DNA of 62,454 nt, counting the filler, from a bacterium (GTDB taxonomy: Bacteria; UBP15; UBA6099; JAJRTR01): the NCBI GenBank assembly GCA_024278215.1. It is 3 parts of 3 records of this genome, joined end to end, with 100 filler letters (N's around TTAATTAATTAA, not from the genome) between each part and the next. Parts side by side here need not be neighbours in the genome. Positions count along the whole stretch, not along the records: positions 1 to 26,404 come from JAJRTR010000145.1; 2 more parts are not named here. One strand, 5' to 3'. Shown here one piece after another: positions 10,940 to 61,825 of the stretch (position 1 is the first letter of the stretch; each line of letters opens with the position of its first letter). Made by a program: the position numbers and the translations under genes. The notes beneath the pieces are model-generated. The model made no database searches and was not told where the DNA came from. It saw only the letters and a list, made by a program, of their open reading frames with translations.

Positions 10940-11752
10940 ATGGCGGCGGATATAAGAACAAGAGCAGAAATGAAACCGCGCATGAAAAAAAAGCGCATTA
11001 TTCGCGTGGGCGAAAACGGCAGGACCGAGCGCGACCAGCCACTGGCGGACGAGGCGACTATCGAACTCTATATAAACGGCAAATATGTCGCGGGGCTTGT
11101 CTGCACTATGGAAAAGGTTAAAGAACTCATCGTCGGTTTTCTTTTTTCCGAGGGCATCATCACTGCGCTGGGCGAGTTGCGGCATGTCGACACGCCTGAC
11201 GGATTCCGGTATGCGGCGACTGTGGAAAAAGCCGAAGGCGCAAAACCGAAGATAGAAAAGTCCATTCTCGCTTCGGGCTGCGGCCACACTATTGTGCTCG
11301 ACGGCGAACTCCCCGTCGAAATATGCCACAAGGAGATAGACCACGAAAGAACTTATACAAGAGAAGATATTGTACAGGCCAGCAGGATTCTTATACGAAG
11401 CGGCGAGATACATAAGAAAACACGGGGCACACACGGCGCGGCGATTCTCGACGGCACTGCACTCGTCGCATCCGCCGAGGACATCAGCAGACACAACGCT
11501 GTAGACAAAGTGATCGGTCGCTGCCGCCTCGACAGGATACCTCTTCGCGATAAGGTCCTCGCAACTACGGGCAGGGTTTCCTCCGAGATCGTAAGGAAAA
11601 TGGTGCGTAACCGGATGGGCATTATCGTTTCTCGAACTGTGCCGACAGCGACCGCCGTCGAACTCGCCGACCACTTCCTCATTACTATTATCGGCACTAT
11701 GTCCGGCAGTTCATTCTCCATCTATTCGCAGCCTTTCAGGATTTCCGTGTAG
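10940..11752 (+). CDS. fdhD: Formate dehydrogenase accessory sulfurtransferase FdhD
   Basis: GFLFSEGII, SGCG, TRGTHGAA, EDISRHNAVDKVIG and TGRVSSE motifs. Confidence 0.92.
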   Translation: MAADIRTRAEMKPRMKKKRIIRVGENGRTERDQPLADEATIELYINGKYVAGLVCTMEKVKELIVGFLFSEGIITALGELRHVDTPDGFRYAATVEKAEGAKPKIEKSILASGCGHTIVLDGELPVEICHKEIDHERTYTREDIVQASRILIRSGEIHKKTRGTHGAAILDGTALVASAEDISRHNAVDKVIGRCRLDRIPLRDKVLATTGRVSSEIVRKMVRNRMGIIVSRTVPTATAVELADHFLITIIGTMSGSSFSIYSQPFRISV

Positions 11753-14144: not shown

Positions 14145-15419
14145 CTACGTATTCGGACTTTTCCGGGAAGTCAACCAGTATTCGATAAGGCTGTCGTCGA
14201 AGTCATCCATTGTCGCATTTATGGGATCGGTTGCGATGACGCTTCCGGTGACGGCTTCTATGGTTTTCAGTCCGTTACCGGTGATGAATGCGACAGTTGT
14301 TTCTTTTTTGTCGATTACGCCCTGCGCCGCCAGTTTTTTCAGGACGGCGATTGTGACACCGCCGGCGGTTTCGGTGAAAACGCCTTCGGTCCGTGCAAGC
14401 AATTCGATGCCTTCTACGATTTCCTTGTCGGAAGCGGATTCAGCCGCGCCGCCGGTTTCATTTATCGTCTTCCAGGCATAGTAGCCGTCTGCCGGATTGC
14501 CGATTGCGAGCGACTTTGCGATTGTGTCGGGTCTGACTGGTTTTATGATGTCTGTTTTTTCTTTAAACGCGGTGACGATGGGGCAGCAGCCGAGTCCCTG
14601 GCCGCCGGACACGCGAACAGGGTGTTTGCCTATTATTCCAAGTTTCTGGAATTCGATGATTCCTTTATGAATTTTTGTAAGCAGAGAACCTGAAGCCATG
14701 GGCACCACGACATGATCGGGTGCGCGCCAGCCGAGTTGTTCGGCTACTTCGTATCCAAGCGTTTTCGATCCTTCCGAATAGAATGATCTGATGTTAATGT
14801 TGACAAAAGCCCATTTCATGCGCTCGCTGATTTCACTGCACAGGCGATTTACGTCATCATAGGAGCCTTTGACGCGAACCAGGAATGGTTTGTAAATGCC
14901 CGCGCCTATGACTTTGCCGAGTTCAAGGTCATGGGGGATAAATATAAACGTCTGCATACCTGCTACAGCGCCGTAGGCGGAAACGGCACAAGCAAGATTC
15001 CCGGTGGATGGGCAGGCGATCTTCCTGAAACCGAATTCGCGGGCTTTTGTAGTTGCGACCGTCACGACCCGGTCCTTGAATGAGTAGGTGGGGTTGACGG
15101 CGTCGTTTTTTATGTAAAGATTATCCAGTCCGAGTTCTTTCCCCAGTCTTTCAGCTTTAAGTAGTGGTGTGAAGCCCTCCTGCAGTGTGACCACGTCGCG
15201 GGTTTCCACCGGGAGCAGGTCCCAGTAGCGCCAGAGCGAAAGGGGACCGGACTCGATTTTCTCTCTTGATATGTTGCTTCGTATAATATCGTAGTCGTAT
15301 GCGACTTCGAGCGGCCCGAAACACTCGCTGCAATAGTGTTTCGGCTGAATGTCGTATTCAGCCCCGCATTCCTTGCATACGAGGTTCATAAGTTTATTCT
15401 TCACACCGGCACTTTTCAT
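14145..15419 (-). CDS. thrC: Threonine synthase-like fold-type II PLP enzyme (Zn-ribbon type, carrier-protein associated)
   Basis: N-terminal CxxC..CxxC, NPTYSFKDR PLP-Lys motif, STGNLA, EGSKTLGYE, ITGNGLK. Confidence 0.85.
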   Translation of the reverse strand: MKSAGVKNKLMNLVCKECGAEYDIQPKHYCSECFGPLEVAYDYDIIRSNISREKIESGPLSLWRYWDLLPVETRDVVTLQEGFTPLLKAERLGKELGLDNLYIKNDAVNPTYSFKDRVVTVATTKAREFGFRKIACPSTGNLACAVSAYGAVAGMQTFIFIPHDLELGKVIGAGIYKPFLVRVKGSYDDVNRLCSEISERMKWAFVNINIRSFYSEGSKTLGYEVAEQLGWRAPDHVVVPMASGSLLTKIHKGIIEFQKLGIIGKHPVRVSGGQGLGCCPIVTAFKEKTDIIKPVRPDTIAKSLAIGNPADGYYAWKTINETGGAAESASDKEIVEGIELLARTEGVFTETAGGVTIAVLKKLAAQGVIDKKETTVAFITGNGLKTIEAVTGSVIATDPINATMDDFDDSLIEYWLTSRKSPNT

Positions 15420-15423
15420 TGTT

Positions 15424-15678
15424 TCAGCCTTCCTGTTTCTTTCGTATGATAATCTTCCAGTCGGATGCTGTTTCCTGCCTGACCAACACTATTTCATGGC
15501 CTTCGTTTTCCATACTTCGCGGCACATTCTCGACAGCGGGAAGGTGGTTTACCGTCACTTCCAGCAACTGGCCGCCTTGAATTTCCTCTATAGCCAGTTT
15601 CGATTTTATAAATGTGTAAGGGCAGATTTCTCCCCGGATGTCAATCTTTTTTTTCGCTTCTATTTTGTCTTCACTCAT
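15424..15678 (-). CDS. tusA: TusA/SirA-family sulfurtransferase
   Basis: DIRGEICPYT motif, 84 aa, AAGGAG RBS upstream. Confidence 0.88.
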   Translation of the reverse strand: MSEDKIEAKKKIDIRGEICPYTFIKSKLAIEEIQGGQLLEVTVNHLPAVENVPRSMENEGHEIVLVRQETASDWKIIIRKKQEG

Positions 15679-15694
15679 GGCGCAGACTCCTTTC

Positions 15695-15733
15695 GAGCTC
15701 ATTGTGAAATTCTGATTCTGCCGCGGTCGGCTG
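15695..15733 (+). repeat. MITE family B terminal fragment inside operon
   Basis: GAGCTCATTGTGAAATTCTGATTCTGCCGCGGTCGGCTG resembles the first ~40 nt of 20781-20958. Confidence 0.65.
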
Positions 15734-15750
15734 ATAGTACAATCGCCTGT

Positions 15751-16926
15751 TTATGCGTCCAGCACTCCGGCCAGTTCGCGGAAGGCGTCGAGCACCTTTT
15801 TTCGTTCATCGTCGGTCAATCCATACACGGACATTTTGACGTGTTTGCTCATACCGCGATGAAGTCCCACGATACCGTTCCTGATCATGAACTTCGCGAT
15901 AAAGAAACCTTTTTCTCTTTTGTTTTTTGATAGTTCCCAGAAGCGCGGTGTCTCGAAATGGAGCAGGTGGTGGCGATGCGGCCTCTGGCCCAGCAGCATA
16001 ATGTCTCCGATGTCTTCGAGCTTATCAGCGAAATCATTAGTTTTAGTTAATTCTTCATCCCAGTTTTTTATCCTTTTTTCCACGAAGGGAAAGGAAAACA
16101 TGCCGCTGATGAGTGGAAGCCCGCCAACGCTGCAACCGAAGATATTGGGTATCTTTTTGCCGAAGGAGCGTCCTGTCCACGAACCTACAGTCCGGGATGT
16201 TGAAAACAGGCGGTCGGTCCATTCATACGTCGTCGCGACATATCCGAGCGGGGCGAGCGACATCATGGATTTGTGCGCGGAGAGAGTGAGAAACGACGCG
16301 CCGATCTCTTTCATGTTTACAGGCGCCACGCCGCCTGTGTACGCGGCATTCACCATAAGGGGAACACCTTTGTCCTGACATATTTTCCCGATGTCTTCGA
16401 CCGGCGCGATGTTGCCGTAATACGGGTCTGCGTGAGTGACGACCGCGAGGGCGGGCAATTTCCCGGTGTCCGCTTTAACTTTTTCGATCTGCTCGGCGTA
16501 GGCTTCGGCAGGGAAAGTGTAAGTGGGATAACCGTCGTGAGGGAACTCGACGACTCTGAAACTATTCATTTCAGCGGCGATATTCGTGCTGTAGTGACTA
16601 TTGGGATCGGTAACAATTATGTCCGCATAGTTGCCGTCCATATCACAGAATTCACGAACGGCCCGCAACACGGCGAACTGTGCGGCGCGGCATCCGAAGG
16701 TATGCTCGGCTGCGTCGGCTCCGAAAAATGCGGCAATCCGGGAAAGAAACTTCCGCACAGGCGGCTTACTGCAAAGCGAAGACCTGCCTTCAAGGCAGTC
16801 GTAACACGCCACATATCCGAGGTCGCCCCACTGATCGTATAGTCGCTCCCTGATCTCGACAGGCAGTATCCCGCCCCGCATCAGGGCGTTTATAACTGTA
16901 TGGTCTTTATAAGGATTATCAAACAT
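15751..16926 (-). CDS. pscS: O-phosphoseryl-tRNA:Cys-tRNA synthase (SepCysS) homologue
   Basis: NALMRGGILP, GYVACYDC (CxxC), KPPV, FGCR, SHYS, YGNI, NAAY, SAHKS (PLP Lys), FGCS (third Cys) and C-terminal KMSVYGL mirror archaeal SepCysS motifs as I recall them; the start overlaps the upstream stop. Confidence 0.85.
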   Translation of the reverse strand: MFDNPYKDHTVINALMRGGILPVEIRERLYDQWGDLGYVACYDCLEGRSSLCSKPPVRKFLSRIAAFFGADAAEHTFGCRAAQFAVLRAVREFCDMDGNYADIIVTDPNSHYSTNIAAEMNSFRVVEFPHDGYPTYTFPAEAYAEQIEKVKADTGKLPALAVVTHADPYYGNIAPVEDIGKICQDKGVPLMVNAAYTGGVAPVNMKEIGASFLTLSAHKSMMSLAPLGYVATTYEWTDRLFSTSRTVGSWTGRSFGKKIPNIFGCSVGGLPLISGMFSFPFVEKRIKNWDEELTKTNDFADKLEDIGDIMLLGQRPHRHHLLHFETPRFWELSKNKREKGFFIAKFMIRNGIVGLHRGMSKHVKMSVYGLTDDERKKVLDAFRELAGVLDA

Positions 16927-17884
16927 AGTTTTCTTGTCCGCCAATCGACTTGCCGATGATATCGGAAATTACTTTCAGCATGGACTCACCGCCTGAATAG
17001 ATGTCGATTCCCTCGGAACCGGTTTCCAGTACGGCATAAATATCCAGCCAGTTCTGCCTTGTGCGTGTCATGAAGGGAGGGCGAACTTCCGGCGGCTCGC
17101 CTTTAAGTTTTATCGGAATGTATACAGTAATCTGCTTGAGAGCGCCCTGATCGTTCTTGTTGATATACAGCCGGACATTGTAAGCGCCGATCTTTCCCAT
17201 AAAGTAATCCGTACTCTTTTCAAAGCCGATACTTTTGAAATTCCGGACGACCTCCGGGGGCAGGTCTGAAACAAGGCAGCCGCAGAGAGCGCCGCCGCAT
17301 TTCTGAAGCCTCGACACTTTTTCCTCTATCTTATCGACCATAAACGGCGGGACACCGACCACGAGTTCATTGTCCGTATATCCGCCGTACATTCTCGCCC
17401 CGTTGCACAGCGTAGTCATATTCGGGATGCCTTCCGCGATTACCATGGCTGTAGCCTCACCGCAGACAGCCACTTCTCCGCGAAACTCCGCGGACATGCC
17501 GCCAAGCAGAATCGATATATTCATGACCTGCCTGGGATTCAGCACGAACAGAATTACATCCGCGCCCTCGATAGGCCCGATGACCACTGCCCTGATTTTT
17601 TCTTTTATCAGGGTCGGCATATTCGAGTACTTCGGTTTGCGCAGCCCCAGGGCGAGTTCGGAATTAGGGCAGGCCATATCGTCGATTGTCGCGACACACT
17701 ACTTGCCGCACGCTGCTTCTCTCACCATCCGGCAATACCAGTTGCGCCCGCCGGGCCGATCGCTTTTCGATACTTCCATACTTTCATCTTCTTCGGCTAT
17801 CAGCTTTATACCCACCAGTTCGTGCTTCATTCCCAGATAGGCCCTGATCGCCTCATATCTTTTTTTCTTCTCAGAAATGGACAT
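16919..17884 (-). pseudogene. DUF169-like protein interrupted by one in-frame TAG at 17699-17701 (nonsense mutation, error or readthrough)
   Basis: Minus strand reads TGC GGC AAG TAG TGT GTC GCG ACA ATC GAC GAT ATG GCC TGC. Joined frame gives VGIKL..YCRMVREAA..CPNSELALG..NPRQVM..AVCGE..CNGAR, 321 aa. Confidence 0.7.
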
Positions 17885-18686
17885 CGCAGAATTCCTCATA
17901 ATCTATCAGTTCAGTGATTTCCGGGTTGTCGCCGCAGACGGGGCAGCCCACATCACGCCTGGTGTTTACGTAACGAAAATCCATGGCAAGCGCATCGTAC
18001 AGCAGCAGCCGGTTCTTCAGCGTAGTGCCTATGCCGAGCAGTCGCTTGACCGCTTCGGTCGCCTGGATAAGCCCGACGACGCCCGGAAGCAGTCCGAGCA
18101 CCCCTGCTTCCTGGCAACTCGGCACCATCCCGGCAGGCGGCGGCTCCGGGAAAATACATCTGTAGCACGGCCCTTCACCCGGCACGAACAGCGATACCTG
18201 CCCCTCGAAGCGGAATACGCTTCCATACACATCGGGTTTGCCCAGCAGGACACACGCGTCGTTGACCAGATAGCGCGTGGCGAAACTGTCGCAACCATCC
18301 ACCACAAGGTCGTACTCCCGGATGATTTCCATCGCGTTTTCAGAAGTAATACGCTCCTTATAAATGACAATATTCACATCCGGGTTGATGTCGGACATAG
18401 TCTCCCGGGCGGATTCCACTTTAGGTATGCCCAGGTCCTTCGTACCGTGTATGACCTGTCGGTGCAGGTTGCTGATCTCGACAACATCGTCGTCGATTAT
18501 CCCAATAGTGCCTATGCCGGCGGCCGCGAGATACAACGCGTTCGGCGTGCCGAGCCCGCCCGCGCCAACAAGCAACACCTTCGACTCGAGCAGCCTGCGC
18601 TGCCCCTTGCCGCCTATCTCGGGCAGGATAATCTGCCGCCCGTAGCGGCGAATGCTTTCATCGGAAAAACCACCAAAATCACTCAT
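17871..18686 (-). CDS. moeB: MoeB/ThiF adenylyltransferase (no rhodanese domain)
   Basis: RYGRQIIL, GAGGLG, SNLHRQ, PCYRC, SCQEAGVLG, CPVC. Confidence 0.93.
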   Translation of the reverse strand: MSDFGGFSDESIRRYGRQIILPEIGGKGQRRLLESKVLLVGAGGLGTPNALYLAAAGIGTIGIIDDDVVEISNLHRQVIHGTKDLGIPKVESARETMSDINPDVNIVIYKERITSENAMEIIREYDLVVDGCDSFATRYLVNDACVLLGKPDVYGSVFRFEGQVSLFVPGEGPCYRCIFPEPPPAGMVPSCQEAGVLGLLPGVVGLIQATEAVKRLLGIGTTLKNRLLLYDALAMDFRYVNTRRDVGCPVCGDNPEITELIDYEEFCDVHF

Positions 18687-18687
18687 G

Positions 18688-18963
18688 TCAGCCTCCAGCT
18701 ATCGAGGGAACTATTGAAATTTCCTTCCCCTCGGGCGTCTCCGTGTCGAGTCCGGAAAGAAACCTTATATCATCTCCGTCCAAATATATATTCACGAAGC
18801 GCCGCAATGCACCGCTATTGTCACAAATCTTCGCCCTGATACCGGGATGCTTCGTCTCGATGTCGTCGATTATCTCCCGGATATTACTACCTTTCGCTTC
18901 AACAAATTCCTGACCTCCCGTGAACTTTCTCAGTGCTGTCGGAATCCTTACCTTTGATCCCAT
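18688..18963 (-). CDS. Ubiquitin-fold sulfur carrier (MoaD/ThiS family, CysO-like)
   Basis: 91 aa; VRIPTALR..TGG, LRRFVNIY, ends in free PSIAGG. Confidence 0.92.
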   Translation of the reverse strand: MGSKVRIPTALRKFTGGQEFVEAKGSNIREIIDDIETKHPGIRAKICDNSGALRRFVNIYLDGDDIRFLSGLDTETPEGKEISIVPSIAGG

Positions 18964-19050: not shown

Positions 19051-19503
19051 TCATGCTCCGATCAACTCACTTACCGCCTCGACGAACTTTTCAGGCGCGA
19101 TCGGTTTGTCGATGAACCTCTCAGGCCTGATGCCGCCGCCTTCACGGTACCTGCCTACCAGTTTTTCCATCTTCTCAAGAAAGTAGTCCTTCATCTGTTC
19201 GAATAATTCGTCCTCGGATTTATCCCTGCTGTCCTCTATTATCTCGCTTATCGCCGTGAGCATAATTATAGGAATGTTTTTTAACTCCTCATTCTTTTTC
19301 AAACTGACAAAAACATTAAACCCGCTTTTCCTGGGCATCATAACGTCGAGAACGATCAGGTCGGGCTTCTCTTGTCCGGCCACAGCCAGACCCTCCACGC
19401 CGTCGTATGCCACAAGCGGCGTGTATCCGTTTTCTTTTAGAACCGTGGACAGATACTTGACGTTATTCACGTCGTCATCTACCAAAAGCACTCGTTTCGA
19501 CAT
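19051..19503 (-). CDS. Single-domain response regulator receiver with acidic helical insertion
   Basis: VDDD, LDVMMP, MLTA and DKP motifs; long insert between MLTA and DKP. Confidence 0.88.
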   Translation of the reverse strand: MSKRVLLVDDDVNNVKYLSTVLKENGYTPLVAYDGVEGLAVAGQEKPDLIVLDVMMPRKSGFNVFVSLKKNEELKNIPIIMLTAISEIIEDSRDKSEDELFEQMKDYFLEKMEKLVGRYREGGGIRPERFIDKPIAPEKFVEAVSELIGA

Positions 19504-19811
19504 GTATATCCCCCTCTTTCGCAATGTGATGTTTATATCTGTTGTGAGCCCAATTGCAGGCTATATGGCTATATGTTTCCGATTCCCCGGTGGAGCACCT
19601 TTTTATGATCAGGCAAATAAAACCAACAAATCCGACTATTTAAGTCAACTAATACTAATTTAGTATTTAAGTACCAGTTTGTCAATATCGTGAAGGTAAT
19701 TATATTGTCACAGCCACAATGACCGTTCAGTGAAGGAGCTTTTCAATCGCAAAGAATCCCTCTCACTTCAGTCCGAGGTGGTAAATTTCGCGGATTTTAC
19801 GGTAGAATCCA

Positions 19812-52418: not shown

Positions 52419-54332
52419 TCATTTGATATCCGCTACTATCCAGTCGACCATAGCTTCGTACTGTTCGAGTGTCCAGCCACTGATGTCGATCGCATTATCG
52501 GGGCAGACAGCTACACACGCCCCGCAGCCTGTGCACATGGCAGGCTCCACCCTGGCGATCTGTTTTTTCTCGCCGTCCTCTGTTTCATAATCCGCCATCC
52601 CGAGCGCGCCTTCCACGAGACAGGCTTTCACACATTCGCCGGTGCCTTTGCACTTGTCCGCGTCGACACTGGCGACAAAGGGATCGAGATCGACGTGCCC
52701 TTTGCCCAGCAGAGACGCGGCTTTAGCGGCGGCGGCGCCTGCCGCGTTCGACACTTCGCCCGTGTCCATGGGTGCCTGGCAGGTGCCGGCGAGATAGATA
52801 CCCGCTTTGGGCAGTTCCACAGGGCGCAGCTTGGGATGCACTTCCTGCAGGAATCTGTCCGCGCCCACGGGCAGTTTCATCATTGTCACCAGATCGGATA
52901 TAGCGGCGGGTTCCATGCCGGTCGCCAGCACGACGAGGTCGACAGGCACTGCGACTTCCTCGCCGAATGTCAGCGTATCTTTCGCCCTGACAAGCAGTGG
53001 ATAATCGCCGGGCGCTTCTTTCGAGGTGACTTCCGGGCCGGCGTCGGCCTCGAAACGAATGAAGACGACTTTGTTTTTCGACGCGCGGCTGTAGAGTTCC
53101 TCCTGGCCGCGGCCATAGGTTCTTATGTCGCGATAGAACTCATATATGCTTGTGCCGGGATGCGCTTCTTTGATATTGTTGGCCGCGTTCAGCGTGGCAG
53201 CGCAGCATGTGCGCGAGCAATACTCGTTGAGATTACCTGCTTCATCCTCTGTGTGTATGCCGGGTATGTGCCTGCTGCCGACACAATGAATCATCGCCAT
53301 GCTTCTTATTTCACGACCGTTGACAACAAGGCGGTCACCGCTGTTTTTCCCTGTTGCCATCAATTGGATGAGTTCCGGCAGTGTGATTACTTCCGGGTAG
53401 TCGCTGTAACCATATTCGCCGTTCCGCGGAGTGTACGGCTTAAAGCCTGTAGCAAGGATGATAACTCCGGCATCAATGGTTATGTTTTCTTCGGAGGAAG
53501 GCGGTGCATCCGGCAGCACACCGGCGAACGGAATATAAGCGCCTGTTTTCATACCGGACGTAACATTTCGAGAGCAGCCGTCTTTGTCGGTGCCGGTATC
53601 CGGCGGACATTTTTTTATGCCCAGTTTGAAATTGCCGACGTAACCTTCGTAACTTTGTACAGTCGAGCAACTATGCACGGTTATCAATGGATTGGCCAGC
53701 ACGTTCGTGGCGAGAGATGTCAGGAGATCAGCGGCTTTCGTATTTGAAGGTGCAAGGCGGTCGAGTTTTGCAACATTGCCGCCGAGGAAGGGTGATTTTT
53801 CGATTATGGTGACTTTAACGCCTTTGTCGGCCAGGTCTGTTGCGGCCTTCATGCCTGCCATGCCGCCACCGATGACGGCGGCATGAGCTATCGCATCGAC
53901 GCGGATGGGTTCGAGCGGTTCGAGCAGGTTGGCTTTCGCGACTGCCGCCGACACCAGCCGGGCGGCCTTTTCCGTAGCGGAATCGCCGTTATGCACCCAA
54001 CTGACGTGCTCCCGGATGTTGGCGTGTTCATATATGTAGGGGTTGAAACCAGCGCGTTTTACCGCGTTGCGGAAAGTGGTCTGGTGGAGACTCGGAGCGC
54101 ATGAAGCAACTACGACACGGTCCACAGCGCCGCTCTTGAGGTCTTCCATTATCATCTCCTGGCCGGGATCGGAACACATGAACATGTTGGTCCTGGCCAC
54201 GGAAACCAATGGCATTTTCTCTACGCTTTCACGGACTTTCTCGACATATACATGGTCGGAAATATTACCTCCGCAATAGCAAATATATACGCCGACTTTT
54301 CTTTGCTTTTCGCCGGTTGCTTCATTTTTCAT
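52419..54332 (-). CDS. hdrA: HdrA-family flavo-iron-sulfur protein
   Basis: GVYICYCGGNI, ANIREH, GGGMAG, HCVGSR..YCSRTCC, DIRTYG, C-terminal ferredoxin. Confidence 0.9.
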   Translation of the reverse strand: MKNEATGEKQRKVGVYICYCGGNISDHVYVEKVRESVEKMPLVSVARTNMFMCSDPGQEMIMEDLKSGAVDRVVVASCAPSLHQTTFRNAVKRAGFNPYIYEHANIREHVSWVHNGDSATEKAARLVSAAVAKANLLEPLEPIRVDAIAHAAVIGGGMAGMKAATDLADKGVKVTIIEKSPFLGGNVAKLDRLAPSNTKAADLLTSLATNVLANPLITVHSCSTVQSYEGYVGNFKLGIKKCPPDTGTDKDGCSRNVTSGMKTGAYIPFAGVLPDAPPSSEENITIDAGVIILATGFKPYTPRNGEYGYSDYPEVITLPELIQLMATGKNSGDRLVVNGREIRSMAMIHCVGSRHIPGIHTEDEAGNLNEYCSRTCCAATLNAANNIKEAHPGTSIYEFYRDIRTYGRGQEELYSRASKNKVVFIRFEADAGPEVTSKEAPGDYPLLVRAKDTLTFGEEVAVPVDLVVLATGMEPAAISDLVTMMKLPVGADRFLQEVHPKLRPVELPKAGIYLAGTCQAPMDTGEVSNAAGAAAAKAASLLGKGHVDLDPFVASVDADKCKGTGECVKACLVEGALGMADYETEDGEKKQIARVEPAMCTGCGACVAVCPDNAIDISGWTLEQYEAMVDWIVADIK

Positions 54333-54431
54333 GTCATCGCCCATACCTGGAACTCCCAATAATGGAATCTGATATTTCAATTATTGCCTTTCGACAACAG
54401 GCACGTCTCATTTGTATTCGCCGCCGCAGAT

Positions 54432-56340: not shown

Positions 56341-56679
56341 ATGAGCTTCTGGCGAATGCCGCTTGATGCGGAAGAACAGGGTGTTACAGTAGGCGAGGTG
56401 CATATAATTGCCTACAGATGCAAAGGTTGTCGTTACTGCATCGAGTTTTGTCCGAATAATGTTCTTGCCGAATCTGAAGAATTCAACGAGAAAGGCTATC
56501 ACCCACCTTACGCGGCAAAGGACGGCAAGTGCGTGAACTGCAATTTTTGTGAGACGATTTGTCCTGAATTCGCGATTTTCGTTACAGAAGGTAAGCCAGG
56601 TAATTTGCAGCCTGCCGACGTGTTGCATGATGTGAAACCCGGCCGGAGACTACAGAGGAAACGGCGTTATGGAGAATAG
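56341..56679 (+). CDS. korD: 2-oxoacid:ferredoxin oxidoreductase delta subunit (2x[4Fe-4S])
   Basis: CKGCRYCIEFCP, FNEKGYH, CVNCNFCETICPEFAI. Confidence 0.88.
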   Translation: MSFWRMPLDAEEQGVTVGEVHIIAYRCKGCRYCIEFCPNNVLAESEEFNEKGYHPPYAAKDGKCVNCNFCETICPEFAIFVTEGKPGNLQPADVLHDVKPGRRLQRKRRYGE

Positions 56680-57826
56680 GGCGGTGCTGACGGGCACCCA
56701 TTTCATCAACGGAGACATAGCGTGCGCCGAGGGCGGCCTGGCGGCGGGTTGCCGTTTTTTCGCAGGTTATCCCATAACGCCCGCGACAGAGGTGGCCGAA
56801 CGTATGGCCAGGCGGCTGCCGCAGGTGGGCGGCATATACATACAGATGGAAGACGAGCTTGCGTCTATGGCGGCGATATGCGGCGCGTCATGCTCGGGAG
56901 CGCGTCCGATGACGTCGACTTCAGGCCCGGGCTTTTCGCTTATGATGGAGAACATCGGGCTGGCGGCAATGCTGGAAACTCCCTGCGTGATAGCGAACAT
57001 CCAGCGGGCAGGCCCCTCTACCGGGCTTCCCACGCTGGTCGGGCAGCAGGATGTGATGCAGGCGCGCTGGGGCTCGCATGGCGATTATGAGATTATCGCC
57101 CTGTCGCCCGAGTCGCCGCAAGAAGCTTTTGAACTTACCATCGACGCTTTCAACCTCGCCGAGAAGTACCGTGTCCCCGTCATTCTCCTGAGCGATGAAA
57201 TAATCGGCCACATGACTGAAAAGGTTGTCATACCGCACCCGGACGAGATCGAGATCGTTAAGCGGCGCAGTCCGAACATCGGACCGAAAGATTACGCTCC
57301 TTATTATCCGGACGAAGATGATATTCCGCCGATGTCCACTGCCGGAGACGGCTACCATATTCACGCAACCGGGCTGACGCATAACGAACACGGCTATCCC
57401 GATATTTCCGCCGATGCGCAGGAGCGGCTGGTGCAGAGGCTGGTACGTAAGATAAGGAGCAATGCCGACAGAATAGTACGCACCGAAAACTTATATCTGG
57501 ATGACGCGGAAGTCGTGATGGTGTCCTACGGCTGCTCGGGGCGTACAACCCGAGAAGTTGTAGAAACCGCAAGGGCGGACGGAATGAAGGTCGGCATGGT
57601 GCGCCTGATTACAGTGTGGCCGTTCGCGGAACAACTGATACGGGAACTTGCGGAGCAGAGCAGCGTAGGTGCTTTTGTCGTGGTCGAGATAAATAGCGGA
57701 CAGATAGCTCTCGAGGTGGAACGCTGCGCCGGCGGTAATGCCGAAACTGTGCTCGCGGGACTCATGGGTGGCCGCATGTTTGCTCCGGATGAATTATACA
57801 AAGTGGTGAAGGAGGCCGTTTTGTGA
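56669..57826 (+). CDS. korA: 2-oxoacid:ferredoxin oxidoreductase alpha subunit
   Basis: GYPITPATE, QMEDELA, TSGPGFSLM, QRAGPSTGLPT. Confidence 0.93.
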   Translation: MENRAVLTGTHFINGDIACAEGGLAAGCRFFAGYPITPATEVAERMARRLPQVGGIYIQMEDELASMAAICGASCSGARPMTSTSGPGFSLMMENIGLAAMLETPCVIANIQRAGPSTGLPTLVGQQDVMQARWGSHGDYEIIALSPESPQEAFELTIDAFNLAEKYRVPVILLSDEIIGHMTEKVVIPHPDEIEIVKRRSPNIGPKDYAPYYPDEDDIPPMSTAGDGYHIHATGLTHNEHGYPDISADAQERLVQRLVRKIRSNADRIVRTENLYLDDAEVVMVSYGCSGRTTREVVETARADGMKVGMVRLITVWPFAEQLIRELAEQSSVGAFVVVEINSGQIALEVERCAGGNAETVLAGLMGGRMFAPDELYKVVKEAVL

Positions 57827-58743
57827 AAAATATATTTATCGACGCACCTCCATTAACTCCGGATCAGGCAAAACTCGGCAGAAGCAAAGGCTATGGCGAC
57901 CATCCCCTGGACAAGTACCTTAAGGAAGGCAGAATCCCGCATATATGGTGTTCCGGCTGCGGGATCGGCATAGTGCTCACGGCATTTATCAAGGCGCTGG
58001 AAAAAAGCGGGGCCGACCCCGATAAAACCGTTGTGGTGTCCGGCATCGGCTGCTCGGCTCGTTCAGCCGGATACCTCAATCTCGACACATATCACACGAC
58101 ACACGGCCGCGCGATTCCTTTCGCCACAGGCGTGAAACTCGCCAACCCGGAATTGAACGTAGTGGTTATCAGCGGTGACGGCGACCTGTTCGCTATCGGA
58201 GGCAATCACATCATACACGCCGCTCGGCGCAATATCGACCTGTCAATTATATGCGTCAACAACTTCACTTACGGCATGACAGGAGGGCAGGGCGGCCCTA
58301 CAACACCAGTCGGCGCAATATCAACAACAACGCCCTACGGCGCTTCCGAGTACCCGTTCAATCTCGTATATATGGCAGCGGCAGCCGGGGCGTCCTATGT
58401 AGCGCGCTGGACGGTGCTTCATACACGCGAGCTTCGCGATGCGATGATCGACTCTATGAGCAAACCCGGTTTCAGCTTTATCGAAGCGATTTCCCCATGT
58501 CCGACAGCACATGCGCGGCGCAATAAACTCGGCTCCGGACTCGATATCATGCGTTATTATAAAGAAAAGTCATACCTTGCCGACGAACTCGACCGTGACG
58601 AAACGGCACTTGGGCTGGCGGATAAAATCGCCATCGGCAAATTTGTCGATGTCGAAAAGCCTACATACCTCGACATGTACAACAGCCATGTTGCTGACCG
58701 TGCTGCGCAAGCTGCGAAAAAGAAAAAAAAGAAAAAGAAATAA
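57823..58743 (+). CDS. korB: 2-oxoacid:ferredoxin oxidoreductase beta subunit
   Basis: WCSGCG, SGIGC, HGRA, GDGD TPP motif, YGMTGGQ, SPCPT. Confidence 0.93.
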   Translation: MKNIFIDAPPLTPDQAKLGRSKGYGDHPLDKYLKEGRIPHIWCSGCGIGIVLTAFIKALEKSGADPDKTVVVSGIGCSARSAGYLNLDTYHTTHGRAIPFATGVKLANPELNVVVISGDGDLFAIGGNHIIHAARRNIDLSIICVNNFTYGMTGGQGGPTTPVGAISTTTPYGASEYPFNLVYMAAAAGASYVARWTVLHTRELRDAMIDSMSKPGFSFIEAISPCPTAHARRNKLGSGLDIMRYYKEKSYLADELDRDETALGLADKIAIGKFVDVEKPTYLDMYNSHVADRAAQAAKKKKKKKK

Positions 58744-59347: not shown

Positions 59348-61825
59348 GTGAATGAGAAATTGAAAAAAACAGAAGAAAACGACAACGCAGCCGCCGTAAA
59401 TGAAGAGCCGCGAATCGGTGTTTATGTATGCCATTGCGGTTTGAATATCGGCGGTTCGGTGGATTGCGAGGCGGTCGCGCTGAGCGCGGCAAAACTGGAT
59501 AATGTGGTTATAGCCGACCACCAGCTTTACACTTGTTCCGAGCCCGGCCAGGAACGAATCAAACAGGATATCGCCGAGCATGGCCTGAACAGAATAGTGG
59601 TAGCCGCGTGTTCGCCGCGAATGCACGAGCCGACGTTCAGATCATGTGTGCAGGACGCCGGGCTGAACAAATATATGCTCGAGATGGCCAACATCCGCGA
59701 ACACTGTTCATGGGTGCATCTTCACGATAAGGCGGCAGGCACGGAGAAGTCGAAAGACCTTGTAAGGATGGCGGTCGCGCGTGCGCGCTACCTCGAACCG
59801 CAGGAAGAGATCGATGTGCCCGTAATCAAGAAGGCGCTGGTCATCGGCGGCGGTGTGGCGGGCATACAGGCTGCGCTCGATCTCGCGGATTCGGGCTACG
59901 AGGTGGTTCTGGTCGAGAAAGAGCCCAGTATCGGCGGTCGCATGGCCCAGATAGACAAGACATTCCCTACTATGGACTGCTCGATCTGCATTCTCGCGCC
60001 GAAGATGGCAGAGGTCGGCAGACACCCGAATATCACTCTCATGTCGCTTACCGAGGTTACTAATATCGGCGGTTATATCGGGAATTTCTCGGTGACTCTC
60101 AGGCATAAAGCGAAATATGTGAATGAAGATTGCAGCGCGTGTTCGGATTGCATGAAAGCGTGTCCGCAACATGCGCCTAACGAGTTCGACGTGGGGCTGG
60201 CGACAAGAAAGGCAATATATATCCCGTTCGCGCAGGCGGTGCCGTCTCAATATGTGATAGACATGGACCTGTGCCTTAATAAAAATGGAGTGCGGGTATG
60301 TGAAAAATGTGTCGAAGCCTGTGAAAGAAAGTGTATAAATTTCGAAGACCACGACCGGGAAGAAACATTCGATGTCGGCACGATTATCGTCTGCACCGGT
60401 GTCGATGTGTTCGATGCGGCGCAAATACCGCAGTACCAGTATAAAAAAGCGCCGAATGTCATCACCAGCCTCGAGTTCGAGAGGCTCATAAACGCGGGCG
60501 GGCCGACTCACGGCCAGCTGATACGTCCTTCGGACCACAGGATACCGAAATCTGTCGCTTTTGTGCAGTGTGTCGGTTCGAGGTCCAGAAAAACGAATCC
60601 CTATTGCAGCAATGTCTGCTGCATGAACACGATAAAAGACGCTCTGCTTATAAAAGAGCACTGGCCGGAAACGGAAATAAAAGTTTTTTACATAGACATA
60701 AGAGCGTTCGGCAAAGGATTCGAGGACCTTTTTCAACGCTCGAAGATGGAAGGTGTTCAGTTTATACAGGGGCTGCCCGGAGAGATAGTGCAGCGCAAAA
60801 ACGGCAACCTGCGTATGATCGGCGAGTTGATGATGCTGCACGAACTGTACGACATAGAAGTCGAGATGGTGATCCTGTCTGTCGGCCTGAAACCGAGCAT
60901 CGGAAGCGATGTGGTGCGCAAATACCTGACCCTGTCGCGCACGAGCGGCGGTTTTTTCATGGTAGCTCATCCAAAGTTGAGGCCGGTAGACACGGCAACA
61001 CGCGGCGTATTCCTCGCTGGATGCTCCGAGGGTCCGAAAGATATAAAGGAAGCTGTAACGCAGGCGAGCGCAGCGGCGGCGAGGGCGAATATAATCATGC
61101 ACCGGGGCATGGTGACAGTCGAGGCGATCACGGCGCGCGTGGATGAGAGCATGTGCACCGGCTGCGGGCTCTGCGCGAAAGTATGCCCCTACCAGGCGAT
61201 ACAGATAAACGACAGGAAGAAGGCTGTCGTCATCGACGCCGCATGCAGCGGATGCGGCACATGCAGTGCGGAATGTAAATTCGACGCTATTACCATGCGC
61301 CATTTCACAGACAGGCAGATTCTGGCGCAGATCGACGCGTTTACGGAATTCGAGCCGGAGAAAAAAATACTCGCATTCTGCTGCAACTGGTGCTCGTATG
61401 CAGGGGCGGACTTCGCGGGCATCAGCCGGATGCAGTATGCACCGCAGGTGCGCATAATACGAACAATGTGCTCGGGCAGAGTCGCACAGAACTTCATCGA
61501 ACACGCATTCGCGCGCGGGGTCGGCGTCGTGTTGCTTTCCGGCTGCCATATCGGTGATTGCCACTACATCGACGCTAATACATTCGCGGAGAAACGGTAT
61601 AAAAGAATGCGCAGGCTGATGAAGCAGAACGGGCTGGATAATAACAGGATGCAGCTCGTGTGGGTGAGCGCGGCGGAAGGACAGAAGTTCCAGGAAAAGA
61701 TCAACAGCCTGGTGGAAAAGCTGAAGACGGTCACTCCTGAAGAAATTAAAAACAGTATGAGGTTTTTCAGCGAACGCGAAAAACAGAGAAAAGAGAAAAA
61801 ACAGAAAACGCGCGCCGGAAAATAG
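59348..61825 (+). CDS. hdrA: HdrA-MvhD fusion protein
   Basis: Full HdrA (GVYVCHCG, DKTFPTMDCSICIL, inserted and C-terminal ferredoxins) plus C-terminal MvhD (FCCNWCSY, RTMCSGR, GCHIGDCHY). Confidence 0.93.
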   Translation: MNEKLKKTEENDNAAAVNEEPRIGVYVCHCGLNIGGSVDCEAVALSAAKLDNVVIADHQLYTCSEPGQERIKQDIAEHGLNRIVVAACSPRMHEPTFRSCVQDAGLNKYMLEMANIREHCSWVHLHDKAAGTEKSKDLVRMAVARARYLEPQEEIDVPVIKKALVIGGGVAGIQAALDLADSGYEVVLVEKEPSIGGRMAQIDKTFPTMDCSICILAPKMAEVGRHPNITLMSLTEVTNIGGYIGNFSVTLRHKAKYVNEDCSACSDCMKACPQHAPNEFDVGLATRKAIYIPFAQAVPSQYVIDMDLCLNKNGVRVCEKCVEACERKCINFEDHDREETFDVGTIIVCTGVDVFDAAQIPQYQYKKAPNVITSLEFERLINAGGPTHGQLIRPSDHRIPKSVAFVQCVGSRSRKTNPYCSNVCCMNTIKDALLIKEHWPETEIKVFYIDIRAFGKGFEDLFQRSKMEGVQFIQGLPGEIVQRKNGNLRMIGELMMLHELYDIEVEMVILSVGLKPSIGSDVVRKYLTLSRTSGGFFMVAHPKLRPVDTATRGVFLAGCSEGPKDIKEAVTQASAAAARANIIMHRGMVTVEAITARVDESMCTGCGLCAKVCPYQAIQINDRKKAVVIDAACSGCGTCSAECKFDAITMRHFTDRQILAQIDAFTEFEPEKKILAFCCNWCSYAGADFAGISRMQYAPQVRIIRTMCSGRVAQNFIEHAFARGVGVVLLSGCHIGDCHYIDANTFAEKRYKRMRRLMKQNGLDNNRMQLVWVSAAEGQKFQEKINSLVEKLKTVTPEEIKNSMRFFSEREKQRKEKKQKTRAGK

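Follow-up and report, generated by a model that had tools for sequence, protein, structure and literature searches.

Six co-oriented minus-strand genes at positions 14145-18963 of a 62,454-nt stretch of DNA from an uncultured bacterium (three joined records of assembly GCA_024278215.1, the whole stretch being called the window here) form an operon in which SepCysS is combined with proteins of sulfur transfer. The operon lies in the part of the window taken from JAJRTR010000145.1 and has the order ubiquitin-like sulfur carrier (Ubl), E1 adenylyltransferase, DUF169 protein, SepCysS, TusA and ThrC-like pyridoxal phosphate (PLP) enzyme (Table 1). With somewhat more belief than doubt, we read it as two modules of archaeal type that were transferred horizontally, namely a homocysteine route comprising Ubl, E1, TusA and the ThrC-like enzyme and a tRNA-dependent cysteine route comprising the DUF169 protein and SepCysS. 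The identities of the genes, their conserved linkage, the catalytic and tRNA-recognition residues of SepCysS and its position in a phylogenetic tree were observed directly. A preliminary description of this DNA had listed six tightly packed genes in one orientation, and their coordinates, Pfam and NCBIfam assignments and close spacing were confirmed. The gene set also stood, but an in-frame TAG at 17699-17701 in the DUF169 gene had been overlooked.

The chemical steps of the scheme, a SepRS in this genome and the function given to the DUF169 protein are proposals. In the first module, by analogy, E1 would adenylate the Gly-Gly end of Ubl, and TusA would replace the missing rhodanese domain, passing persulfide sulfur on to give the Ubl thiocarboxylate (Ubl-COSH). 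The ThrC-like enzyme would then use Ubl-COSH and O-phosphohomoserine to form homocysteine, as in the MetO/MoeZ/MetM system of Streptomyces. In the second module, SepCysS would turn O-phosphoseryl-tRNA(Cys) (Sep-tRNA(Cys)) into Cys-tRNA(Cys) using three conserved cysteines and PLP, and this would require a SepRS encoded elsewhere in the genome. The DUF169 protein is a conserved companion of SepCysS and our guess is that it acts in sulfur delivery or as an adapter subunit. Each of the gene families is known, the first module as proposed works like a published pathway and bacterial SepCysS has already been published.

Linkage of the genes in metagenome loci

The six window proteins were mapped onto 80 metagenome loci with a SepCysS alignment, many of them short. 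One locus, L008, contained all six genes in the window order and a second, L007, which is cut at both ends, contained five of them, also in the window order. Four others (L009, L014, L037 and L038, the archaeal-type loci) carried the ThrC-like gene, Ubl, a gene for a CxxCxxCC protein, E1, TusA and DUF169 in one string. SepCysS came directly after this string in L009 and L014 and faced it on the opposite strand in L037 and L038. Thus the earlier suggestion of a conserved sulfur-relay operon around SepCysS was borne out, since the linkage recurs among the 80 loci. Conservation of the neighbourhood held for the gene set but not for the gene order, the window order being found only in L008 and, in part, in L007, while the archaeal-type order differs.

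The DUF169 gene was found directly upstream of SepCysS and on the same strand in 32 of the 56 loci with at least 1 kb of upstream sequence, and was adjacent in another arrangement in two more. The ThrC-like gene abutted Ubl in 10 of 11 full-length matches, the exception being L008 with its window order. Within 6 kb of SepCysS, DUF169 was present in 38 of the 80 loci, Ubl in 14, E1 in 15 and TusA in 11. The CxxCxxCC gene of the archaeal-type loci is small, cysteine-rich and placed between Ubl and E1 (L014 7499-7981, L037 13304-13789, L009 2686-3141). PF03692 matches the L014 and L037 copies and misses that of L009; the gene was not found in the window, L007 or L008. A gene of the sulfite/nitrite-reductase type (PF01077 + PF03460; L046 8275-9792) was seen in the SepCysS flanks of four loci.

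Residues and phylogeny of SepCysS

The window SepCysS exceeded the cut-off of the subfamily model NF006810 (301 bits) and matched the structures 3wkr/5x6b (E 1.5e-78) and 2e7i (E 2.5e-70) in the PDB. As stated in the preliminary description, the CxxC, the third cysteine, the PLP lysine and the R/HY positions are kept: all 40 homologues in the alignment have C47, C50, C271, K225 (the PLP lysine, in SAHKS), R86, H117 and Y118. The three cysteines and K225 align with those of Methanocaldococcus jannaschii SepCysS. The M. jannaschii enzyme is described as reading the discriminator base U73 via R345, G346, F347 and G364 (Chen et al. 2017, PMC5688128). Once the alignment had been corrected for a 20-residue tag offset in chain 3wkr_A, the equivalent positions in the window protein were K345, G346, F347 and G364. 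The two glycines and the phenylalanine were invariant (40/40) and the basic position was K or R in 37 of 40. The retention of these residues argues that the protein still acts on tRNA-Cys. Relative to M. jannaschii SepCysS there is an 8-residue insertion.

The window SepCysS shares 85-63% identity with a few proteins of uncultured bacteria and 56-62% with many archaeal ones, with labels that include Hydrothermarchaeales, Ca. Pyrohabitans, Bathyarchaeia, 'Euryarchaeota' and 'Methanobacteriota'. In an unrooted maximum-likelihood tree of 99 rows, it fell in a 12-row clade (approximate likelihood-ratio support, SH-aLRT, 95) that includes L007, L008 and all five rows labelled as bacterial by NCBI, four as 'bacterium' and one as Ca. 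Desantisbacteria; the neighbouring clades were archaeal. This suggests, from sequence, a single transfer of SepCysS between bacteria and archaea. The operon is probably of archaeal type and present in an uncultured diderm bacterium through horizontal transfer. A search of genome contigs with a single SepCysS protein gave only distant relatives of 24-43% identity (Clostridia and Marinimicrobia metagenome-assembled genomes). In L071 and L073, whose SepCysS translations are identical, the SepCysS match contains a stop codon.

The stricter equivalog model TIGR02539 was missed by seven of nine tested members of the clade, of which four came from the six archaeal or unlabelled members and three from the three bacterial ones. 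Given that archaeal and bacterial members are alike under the cut-off, the low score is a property of the clade.

The carrier, its activating enzyme, TusA and the ThrC-like enzyme

The Ubl protein ends ...SIAGG with nothing after the Gly-Gly, so a maturing peptidase would be unnecessary. Its scores against the NCBIfam models SAMP1 (53.5 bits) and MoaD_arch (45.1 bits) were both under the cut-offs. E1 covered positions 121-384 of 387 in the MoeB model and 16-275 of 392 in the MoeZ model. As these matches are limited to the E1 parts of the models, the protein has no rhodanese domain. The active-site motif of TusA is CPYT, with the cysteine present, compared with CPNT or CPDT in the archaeal-type loci and the CPxP consensus of SirA-like domains (PMC5322559). 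Sulfur-assimilation operons with a rhodanese-less E1 are described as ones that 'always contain a SirA', predicted to take the rhodanese role (Iyer et al. 2006, PMC1779556), and the rhodanese-less E1 and TusA found here fit that rule.

The ThrC-like enzyme has a CxxC..CxxC zinc ribbon at its N-terminus. It passed the threonine-synthase models TIGR00260 (cut-off 167.1 bits) and NF006050 (cut-off 303 bits), and its best PDB matches were the threonine synthases 2zsj, 6cgq and 1uim. In Streptomyces, MetO (carrier), Mec (peptidase), MoeZ (E1) and MetM, a MetO-thiocarboxylate-dependent homocysteine synthase, are reported by Hasebe et al. 2024, as cited in PMC13759103 Table 2; the pathway is also cited in bioRxiv 10.1101/2024.10.14.618325 Appendix 4 and in PMC12172450. 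MetM is stated to be 'often misannotated' as threonine synthase (GapMind 2026; PMC13759103, bioRxiv 10.1101/2024.10.14.618325), so that passing the threonine-synthase models does not settle the function. By analogy with this pathway, the enzyme is probably a MetM-type homocysteine synthase that uses the Ubl thiocarboxylate. Of the activities raised in the preliminary description, homocysteine formation from the Ubl thiocarboxylate is the most likely, as it matches MetM/MetO/MoeZ, whereas that of a cysteate synthase was rejected on the scores (TIGR03844, 60.1 versus 324.9 bits; NF053679, 32 versus 600 bits).

As a control, 301 Bacillota genomes were sampled with NF006050; 48 were over the cut-off and 30 loci were examined. 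Only one of these (L112, genome G018) was close to the window enzyme (61% identity) and had an adjacent Ubl gene, whose product is 46% identical to the window Ubl. The other 29 were 28-42% identical to the window enzyme and none had an adjacent Ubl. G018 also has a second, shorter ThrC paralogue, and neither SepCysS nor SepRS gave a match over the cut-offs in this genome. The finding of Ubl adjacency only at the 61%-identical enzyme, in a genome where SepCysS was not detected, indicates that the Ubl linkage marks a ThrC subfamily independently of SepCysS. The G018 Ubl (L117 3390-3674) ends ...AGGR, one residue past the Gly-Gly, and would need trimming, unlike the window Ubl. Two Bacillota loci with high NF006050 scores, L088 (G296:C9:50380-51582; 642 bits) and L089 (G144:C2:880784-881989; 640 bits), contain one in-frame TAG each.

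The DUF169 protein and sulfur supply to SepCysS

With genetic code table 11, the TAG divides the DUF169 frame into pieces of 66 and 252 amino acids; the 252-aa product of the window itself is present in the protein database (P0126). All 11 of the closest homologues (44-82% identical) are uninterrupted, and the residue found in them at the TAG position is E, N, T, S, V, V, H, Q, Y, E and A, a hypervariable site. The TAG and the codon after it occupy 17696-17701, and this second codon encodes Cys in place of the Phe of nine of the 11 closest homologues. Such a pair of unusual codons hints at an error in the local sequence or at a small patch of mutation. The N-terminal piece of 66 codons remains well conserved, and run X1 (see below) gave no cover at the TAG. 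Either a recent nonsense mutation or a local sequence error may account for the TAG, or it may be a site of read-through. Recoding of TAG, as pyrrolysine or by reassignment, is unsupported by the sequence: TAG is the terminator of 8 of 36 window genes checked, and pyrrolysine genes were not found among the window open reading frames (ORFs) scanned. A reading of the stop as a TGA selenocysteine codon was ruled out because the codon is TAG.

Five cysteines of the DUF169 protein were invariant in 30 homologues (C77, C146, C165, C206 and C208, the last two forming an LCGC pair) and C56 was nearly so. About 115 residues at the C-terminus lie beyond the PF02596 model, which makes this a two-domain protein. 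An AlphaFold2 model of the L007 homologue had a mean predicted local distance difference test score (pLDDT) of 82.5. In a fold search no solved fold matched its N-terminal domain, and residues 211-326 resembled secretion-chaperone, YbjN and UEV/E2-like folds at Z 6-7 only, a range rated as common. The resemblance of these residues to UEV/E2 and Atg3/Atg10 folds was weaker (within Z 4-7). An E2-like domain beside E1 and Ubl would be notable, though the fold scores are in the commonplace range. A sequence search of the PDB with the DUF169 protein gave nothing better than E 0.18. In the ESM Atlas, DUF169 occurred in generic DUF169 and GGGtGRT clusters only, with fusions to ferredoxin, CoaE and URO-D, and feature scores were below 0.9.

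Prediction of a SepCysS-DUF169 complex for the L007 pair, using alignments, gave a score of 0.55 compared with 0.00 for the best of three controls. The runs agreed on at least 56% of contacts and the pLDDT of the partner was at least 78. Of 80 solved complexes 58 reached the mark for this score, as did 2 of 110 mismatched pairs, but only seven of those 80 did so at 0.60 or below, along with both of the mismatched pairs. With the conserved adjacency as a prior, the prediction is a modest plus and gives weak support for a complex.

To our knowledge the physiological sulfur donor of SepCysS is still unsettled, and we found no paper that names one. One proposal is that this SepCysS clade has, in the two-domain, five-cysteine DUF169 protein, a dedicated subunit that delivers sulfur or acts as an adapter. 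The protein would be fed by TusA persulfide or Ubl thiocarboxylate, would hence be the missing physiological donor in place of SepCysE or SepCysSn, and would have moved with the package between archaea and bacteria. We regard this as possible rather than likely. Less probable again, and in our opinion unlikely, is a single integrated pathway in which TusA persulfide or Ubl thiocarboxylate, via DUF169, feeds SepCysS as well as the ThrC-like enzyme. Such an arrangement would be consistent with the six genes in one string in the window and L008 and five in L007, with the joining of E1, TusA and DUF169 in the archaeal-type loci, with the five invariant cysteines and, weakly, with the predicted complex. 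We found nothing in print against it, and no report of SepCysS with TusA or with a sulfur carrier was found in Creative Commons-licensed PMC papers and bioRxiv. However, the ThrC-like/Ubl pair occurs without SepCysS in G018, and in many of the SepCysS loci DUF169 is present with neither Ubl nor E1 nor TusA within 6 kb.

The SepRS question and other alternatives

No SepRS, CysRS or CysK/M was found among the 36 window ORFs scanned, which are not all of the ORFs, and no tRNA gene was found in the 62-kb window. The JAMM motif HxH..SxxD was absent from window open frames of at least 90 amino acids. Of what the preliminary description had reported as missing, SepRS, CysM/CysK, tRNA-Cys and a JAB peptidase were likewise not seen in these scans. 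No recurring ORF of SepRS size was present in the 80 SepCysS loci, archaeal-type loci included. As SepRS is unlinked to SepCysS in archaeal-type loci too, its absence from the neighbourhood is uninformative. Moreover, a 62-kb window cannot show absence from a genome, so the term 'orphan' applied earlier to this SepCysS is an interpretation and not an observation.

If the genome truly had no SepRS, SepCysS might work independently of tRNA, either with free O-phosphoserine as its substrate or by generating the persulfide with which TusA and Ubl are loaded. The lack of SepRS among the ORFs scanned and of a tRNA gene in the 62 kb, the lack of a recurring SepRS-sized ORF, the score under the equivalog cut-off and a family kinship to cysteine desulfurases (weak matches to NifS/IscS/SufS models) would all agree with this. 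It is nevertheless very improbable. The U73-recognition and catalytic residues are kept across bacterial and archaeal members, identity of about 60% to archaeal SepCysS argues for an unchanged function, archaeal members of the clade are also under the cut-off and SepRS is unlinked in the archaeal-type loci as well. In addition, Mukai et al. 2017 (PMC5424206) report SepCysS genes from no complete genome that lacks SepRS, and SepRS is reported in Desantisbacteria-like bacteria (Mukai et al. 2022, PMC8762117, section 3.2.2), while a Ca. Desantisbacteria protein is in the clade. The kept U73 residues, the Desantisbacteria-like SepRS and the Ca. Desantisbacteria protein together favour a SepRS elsewhere in the genome, and on these sequence comparisons we expect one to be encoded there. 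We judge it unlikely that the genome truly has none, which would run against the published rule that SepCysS is never present in the absence of SepRS.

A loose grouping of genes sharing only co-regulation for sulfur supply, in which the ThrC-like enzyme is a threonine synthase, Ubl and E1 work for molybdopterin or for tRNA thiolation and TusA acts as a carrier of general use, would explain the two threonine-synthase models passed, the best Ubl matches to SAMP1 and MoaD and the presence 2.4 kb away of FdhD, a molybdoenzyme maturation helper (10940-11752), but is very unlikely given that Ubl adjacency is specific to one ThrC subfamily (10/11 in the metagenomes, 1/1 in Bacillota at 61% identity, 0/29 at 28-42%), that G018 has a second ThrC paralogue beside the Ubl-linked one and that the linkage persists in bacteria and in several groups of archaea even though the order has changed.

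Several results weigh against the two-module reading itself. DUF169 was not beside SepCysS in 22 of the 56 informative loci, and in the window copy the DUF169 gene is broken by the TAG. The score of the SepCysS-DUF169 complex falls in a range that is more often wrong than right unless the pairing is likely beforehand. SepCysS missed the equivalog cut-off (339.1 versus 365.25 bits). SepRS, CysRS, tRNA-Cys and a second thrC were all unseen, in the 62-kb window only. The ThrC-like protein, having passed two threonine-synthase models, may simply be ThrC. The tree, being unrooted, does not give the direction of transfer. Finally, no fused long forms of SepCysS (696-2000 aa), including a DUF169-SepCysS fusion, were found at E <= 1e-20, which is weak evidence.

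Gene arrangement, flanking genes and host

The genes of the operon are closely spaced (Table 1). From the coordinates, Ubl and E1 are separated by 1 nt and E1 and DUF169 overlap by 29 nt. DUF169 and SepCysS overlap by 26 nt if SepCysS starts at the TTG, or are separated by 2 nt if it starts at ATG 16926, the start of the 391-aa form. The SepCysS-TusA spacing is 48 nt, or 72 nt counted from the second ATG, and TusA and the ThrC-like gene are 4 nt apart.

Table 1. Coordinates and family assignments of the operon genes and of the receiver gene in front of them.
Feature	Coordinates	Strand	Model match
ThiS/MoaD-type Ubl sulfur carrier, 91 aa	18688-18963	-	PF02597 ThiS, 53 bits
MoeB/ThiF/UbaA-type E1 adenylyltransferase, 271 aa	17871-18686	-	PF00899 ThiF, 287 bits
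DUF169 protein, 326 codons, in-frame TAG	16919-17899	-	PF02596, 104.1 bits (cut-off 27)
SepCysS, 397 aa (TTG start) or 391 aa (ATG 16926)	15751-16944	-	NF006810, 367.7 bits
TusA/SirA-type sulfurtransferase, 92 aa	15424-15702	-	PF01206, 72.1 bits (cut-off 28.6)
ThrC-like PLP enzyme, 424 aa	14145-15419	-	PALP, 210.7 bits; TIGR00260, 281.1 bits; NF006050, 306.6 bits
Receiver-only response regulator	19051-19524	-	PF00072, 67.6 bits

The receiver gene lies 87 nt upstream of Ubl on the same strand and is possibly the first gene of the unit. Its product carries a C-terminal extension of about 60 residues. The same arrangement is found before the sulfur operon in L008 (20-493), where the protein is 59% identical, and the receiver was the sole one of 14 flanking genes tested that was common to any locus. 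The operon may be under two-component control via this gene. A promoter-like site was found at 19685-19657; the scan gave nine sites in total against a shuffle mean of 6.9, and neither the promoter nor the terminator scan found sites in excess of shuffled sequence. No Rfam match was found in the window, the S-adenosylmethionine (SAM) riboswitch included.

The window also encodes PolA (DNA polymerase I), LpxA, LpxB, an MsbA-type exporter, RNase D and a sigma-54-dependent activator. PolA, LpxA, LpxB, the exporter and the activator indicate that the host is a diderm bacterium. An FdhD/NarQ-family protein (PF02634, 198.7 bits), of a type known as a sulfurtransferase for molybdoenzymes, is encoded on the opposite strand beyond the ThrC-like gene and was in no other locus. 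Two HdrA-type genes are present (52419-54380 and 59348-61825). The second scored above the cut-off of the HdrA2 model (1232.7 versus 1100 bits), and its residues 672-801 match VhuD/MvhD. Subunits of a 2-oxoacid:ferredoxin oxidoreductase are encoded between the two HdrA-type genes at 56669-58743.

Run X1, DNA from a hydrothermal vent metagenome, was the only sequencing run in which the window was detected, with no RNA run among the matches. It covered a small share of the window, and 2 of 23 contig pieces were at least 99% alike. Short X1 contigs at 14593-14820 and 18306-18509 (depths 2.4 and 5.5) had 2 and 0 differences from the window. These matches suggest that this organism, or one almost identical to it, is present at low abundance in the vent metagenome.

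Comparison with known systems

The first module resembles MetM/MetO/MoeZ/Mec of Streptomyces albulus in that, as described for that species, a ThrC homologue is encoded with a ThiS/MoaD-type carrier and E1. The likeness is one of gene content. MoeZ is an E1-rhodanese fusion, whereas in the window E1 is without rhodanese and TusA is encoded separately. Mec has no counterpart in the form of a JAMM motif in the window, where the carrier already ends in GG; such a peptidase may lie elsewhere or be dispensable. A SAM riboswitch is reported to precede metM in S. albulus (PMC12172450), in contrast to the lack of an Rfam match in the window, and the window genes are joined to SepCysS and DUF169. Neighbourhoods of ThiS/MoaD, JAB, rhodanese-less E1 and SirA (PMC1779556, Table 1 row 4e) share Ubl, a rhodanese-less E1, SirA/TusA and a sulfur amino-acid context with the window; those listed there contain JAB, sulfate-reduction genes and O-acetylhomoserine sulfhydrylase, whereas the window has the ThrC-like gene, SepCysS and DUF169 and no JAB. 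The CysO/CysM/Mec/MoeZ system of Mycobacterium tuberculosis (PMC12910592) is alike in using a PLP enzyme, a thiocarboxylated carrier and a phospho-amino acid. However, CysM is of the CysK family and acts on O-phosphoserine, and no such gene was among the 36 window ORFs scanned.

The second module shares the PLP lysine, the three cysteines, the U73 residues and the structure matches with the SepRS/SepCysS route as described in PMC5424206 and PMC8762117. Unlike those systems, no SepRS, tRNA-Cys, SepCysE or SepCysSn is beside the window SepCysS. The 8-residue insertion sits in the region where PMC5424206 places the marker insertion of clades II-VII, whereas the bacterial SepRS-SepCysS operons described there, to whose type the window operon does not belong, are without it. 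For clade VII SepCysS the same paper speaks of 'a few sulfur metabolism genes' nearby (Mukai et al. 2017), and in what PMC5424206 and PMC8762117 report DUF169 is only an occasional neighbour of SepRS. Further parallels are the archaeal-type loci, with the same gene families and the DUF169-SepCysS pairing, from which the window differs in being bacterial, in its rearranged order, in missing the CxxCxxCC gene, in the receiver in front and in the TAG of its DUF169 gene.

Significance

The loci place three candidate sulfur donors beside SepCysS, namely the cysteine-rich DUF169 protein, TusA and the Ubl thiocarboxylate system, which opens the question of the donor to experiments with purified proteins. 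The package is present in diderm bacteria that fall outside the SepRS-SepCysS operon type of Parcubacteria and Chloroflexi. If the first module works as proposed, a homocysteine route of the MetM/MetO kind can run on a rhodanese-less E1 and TusA with no peptidase in the operon.

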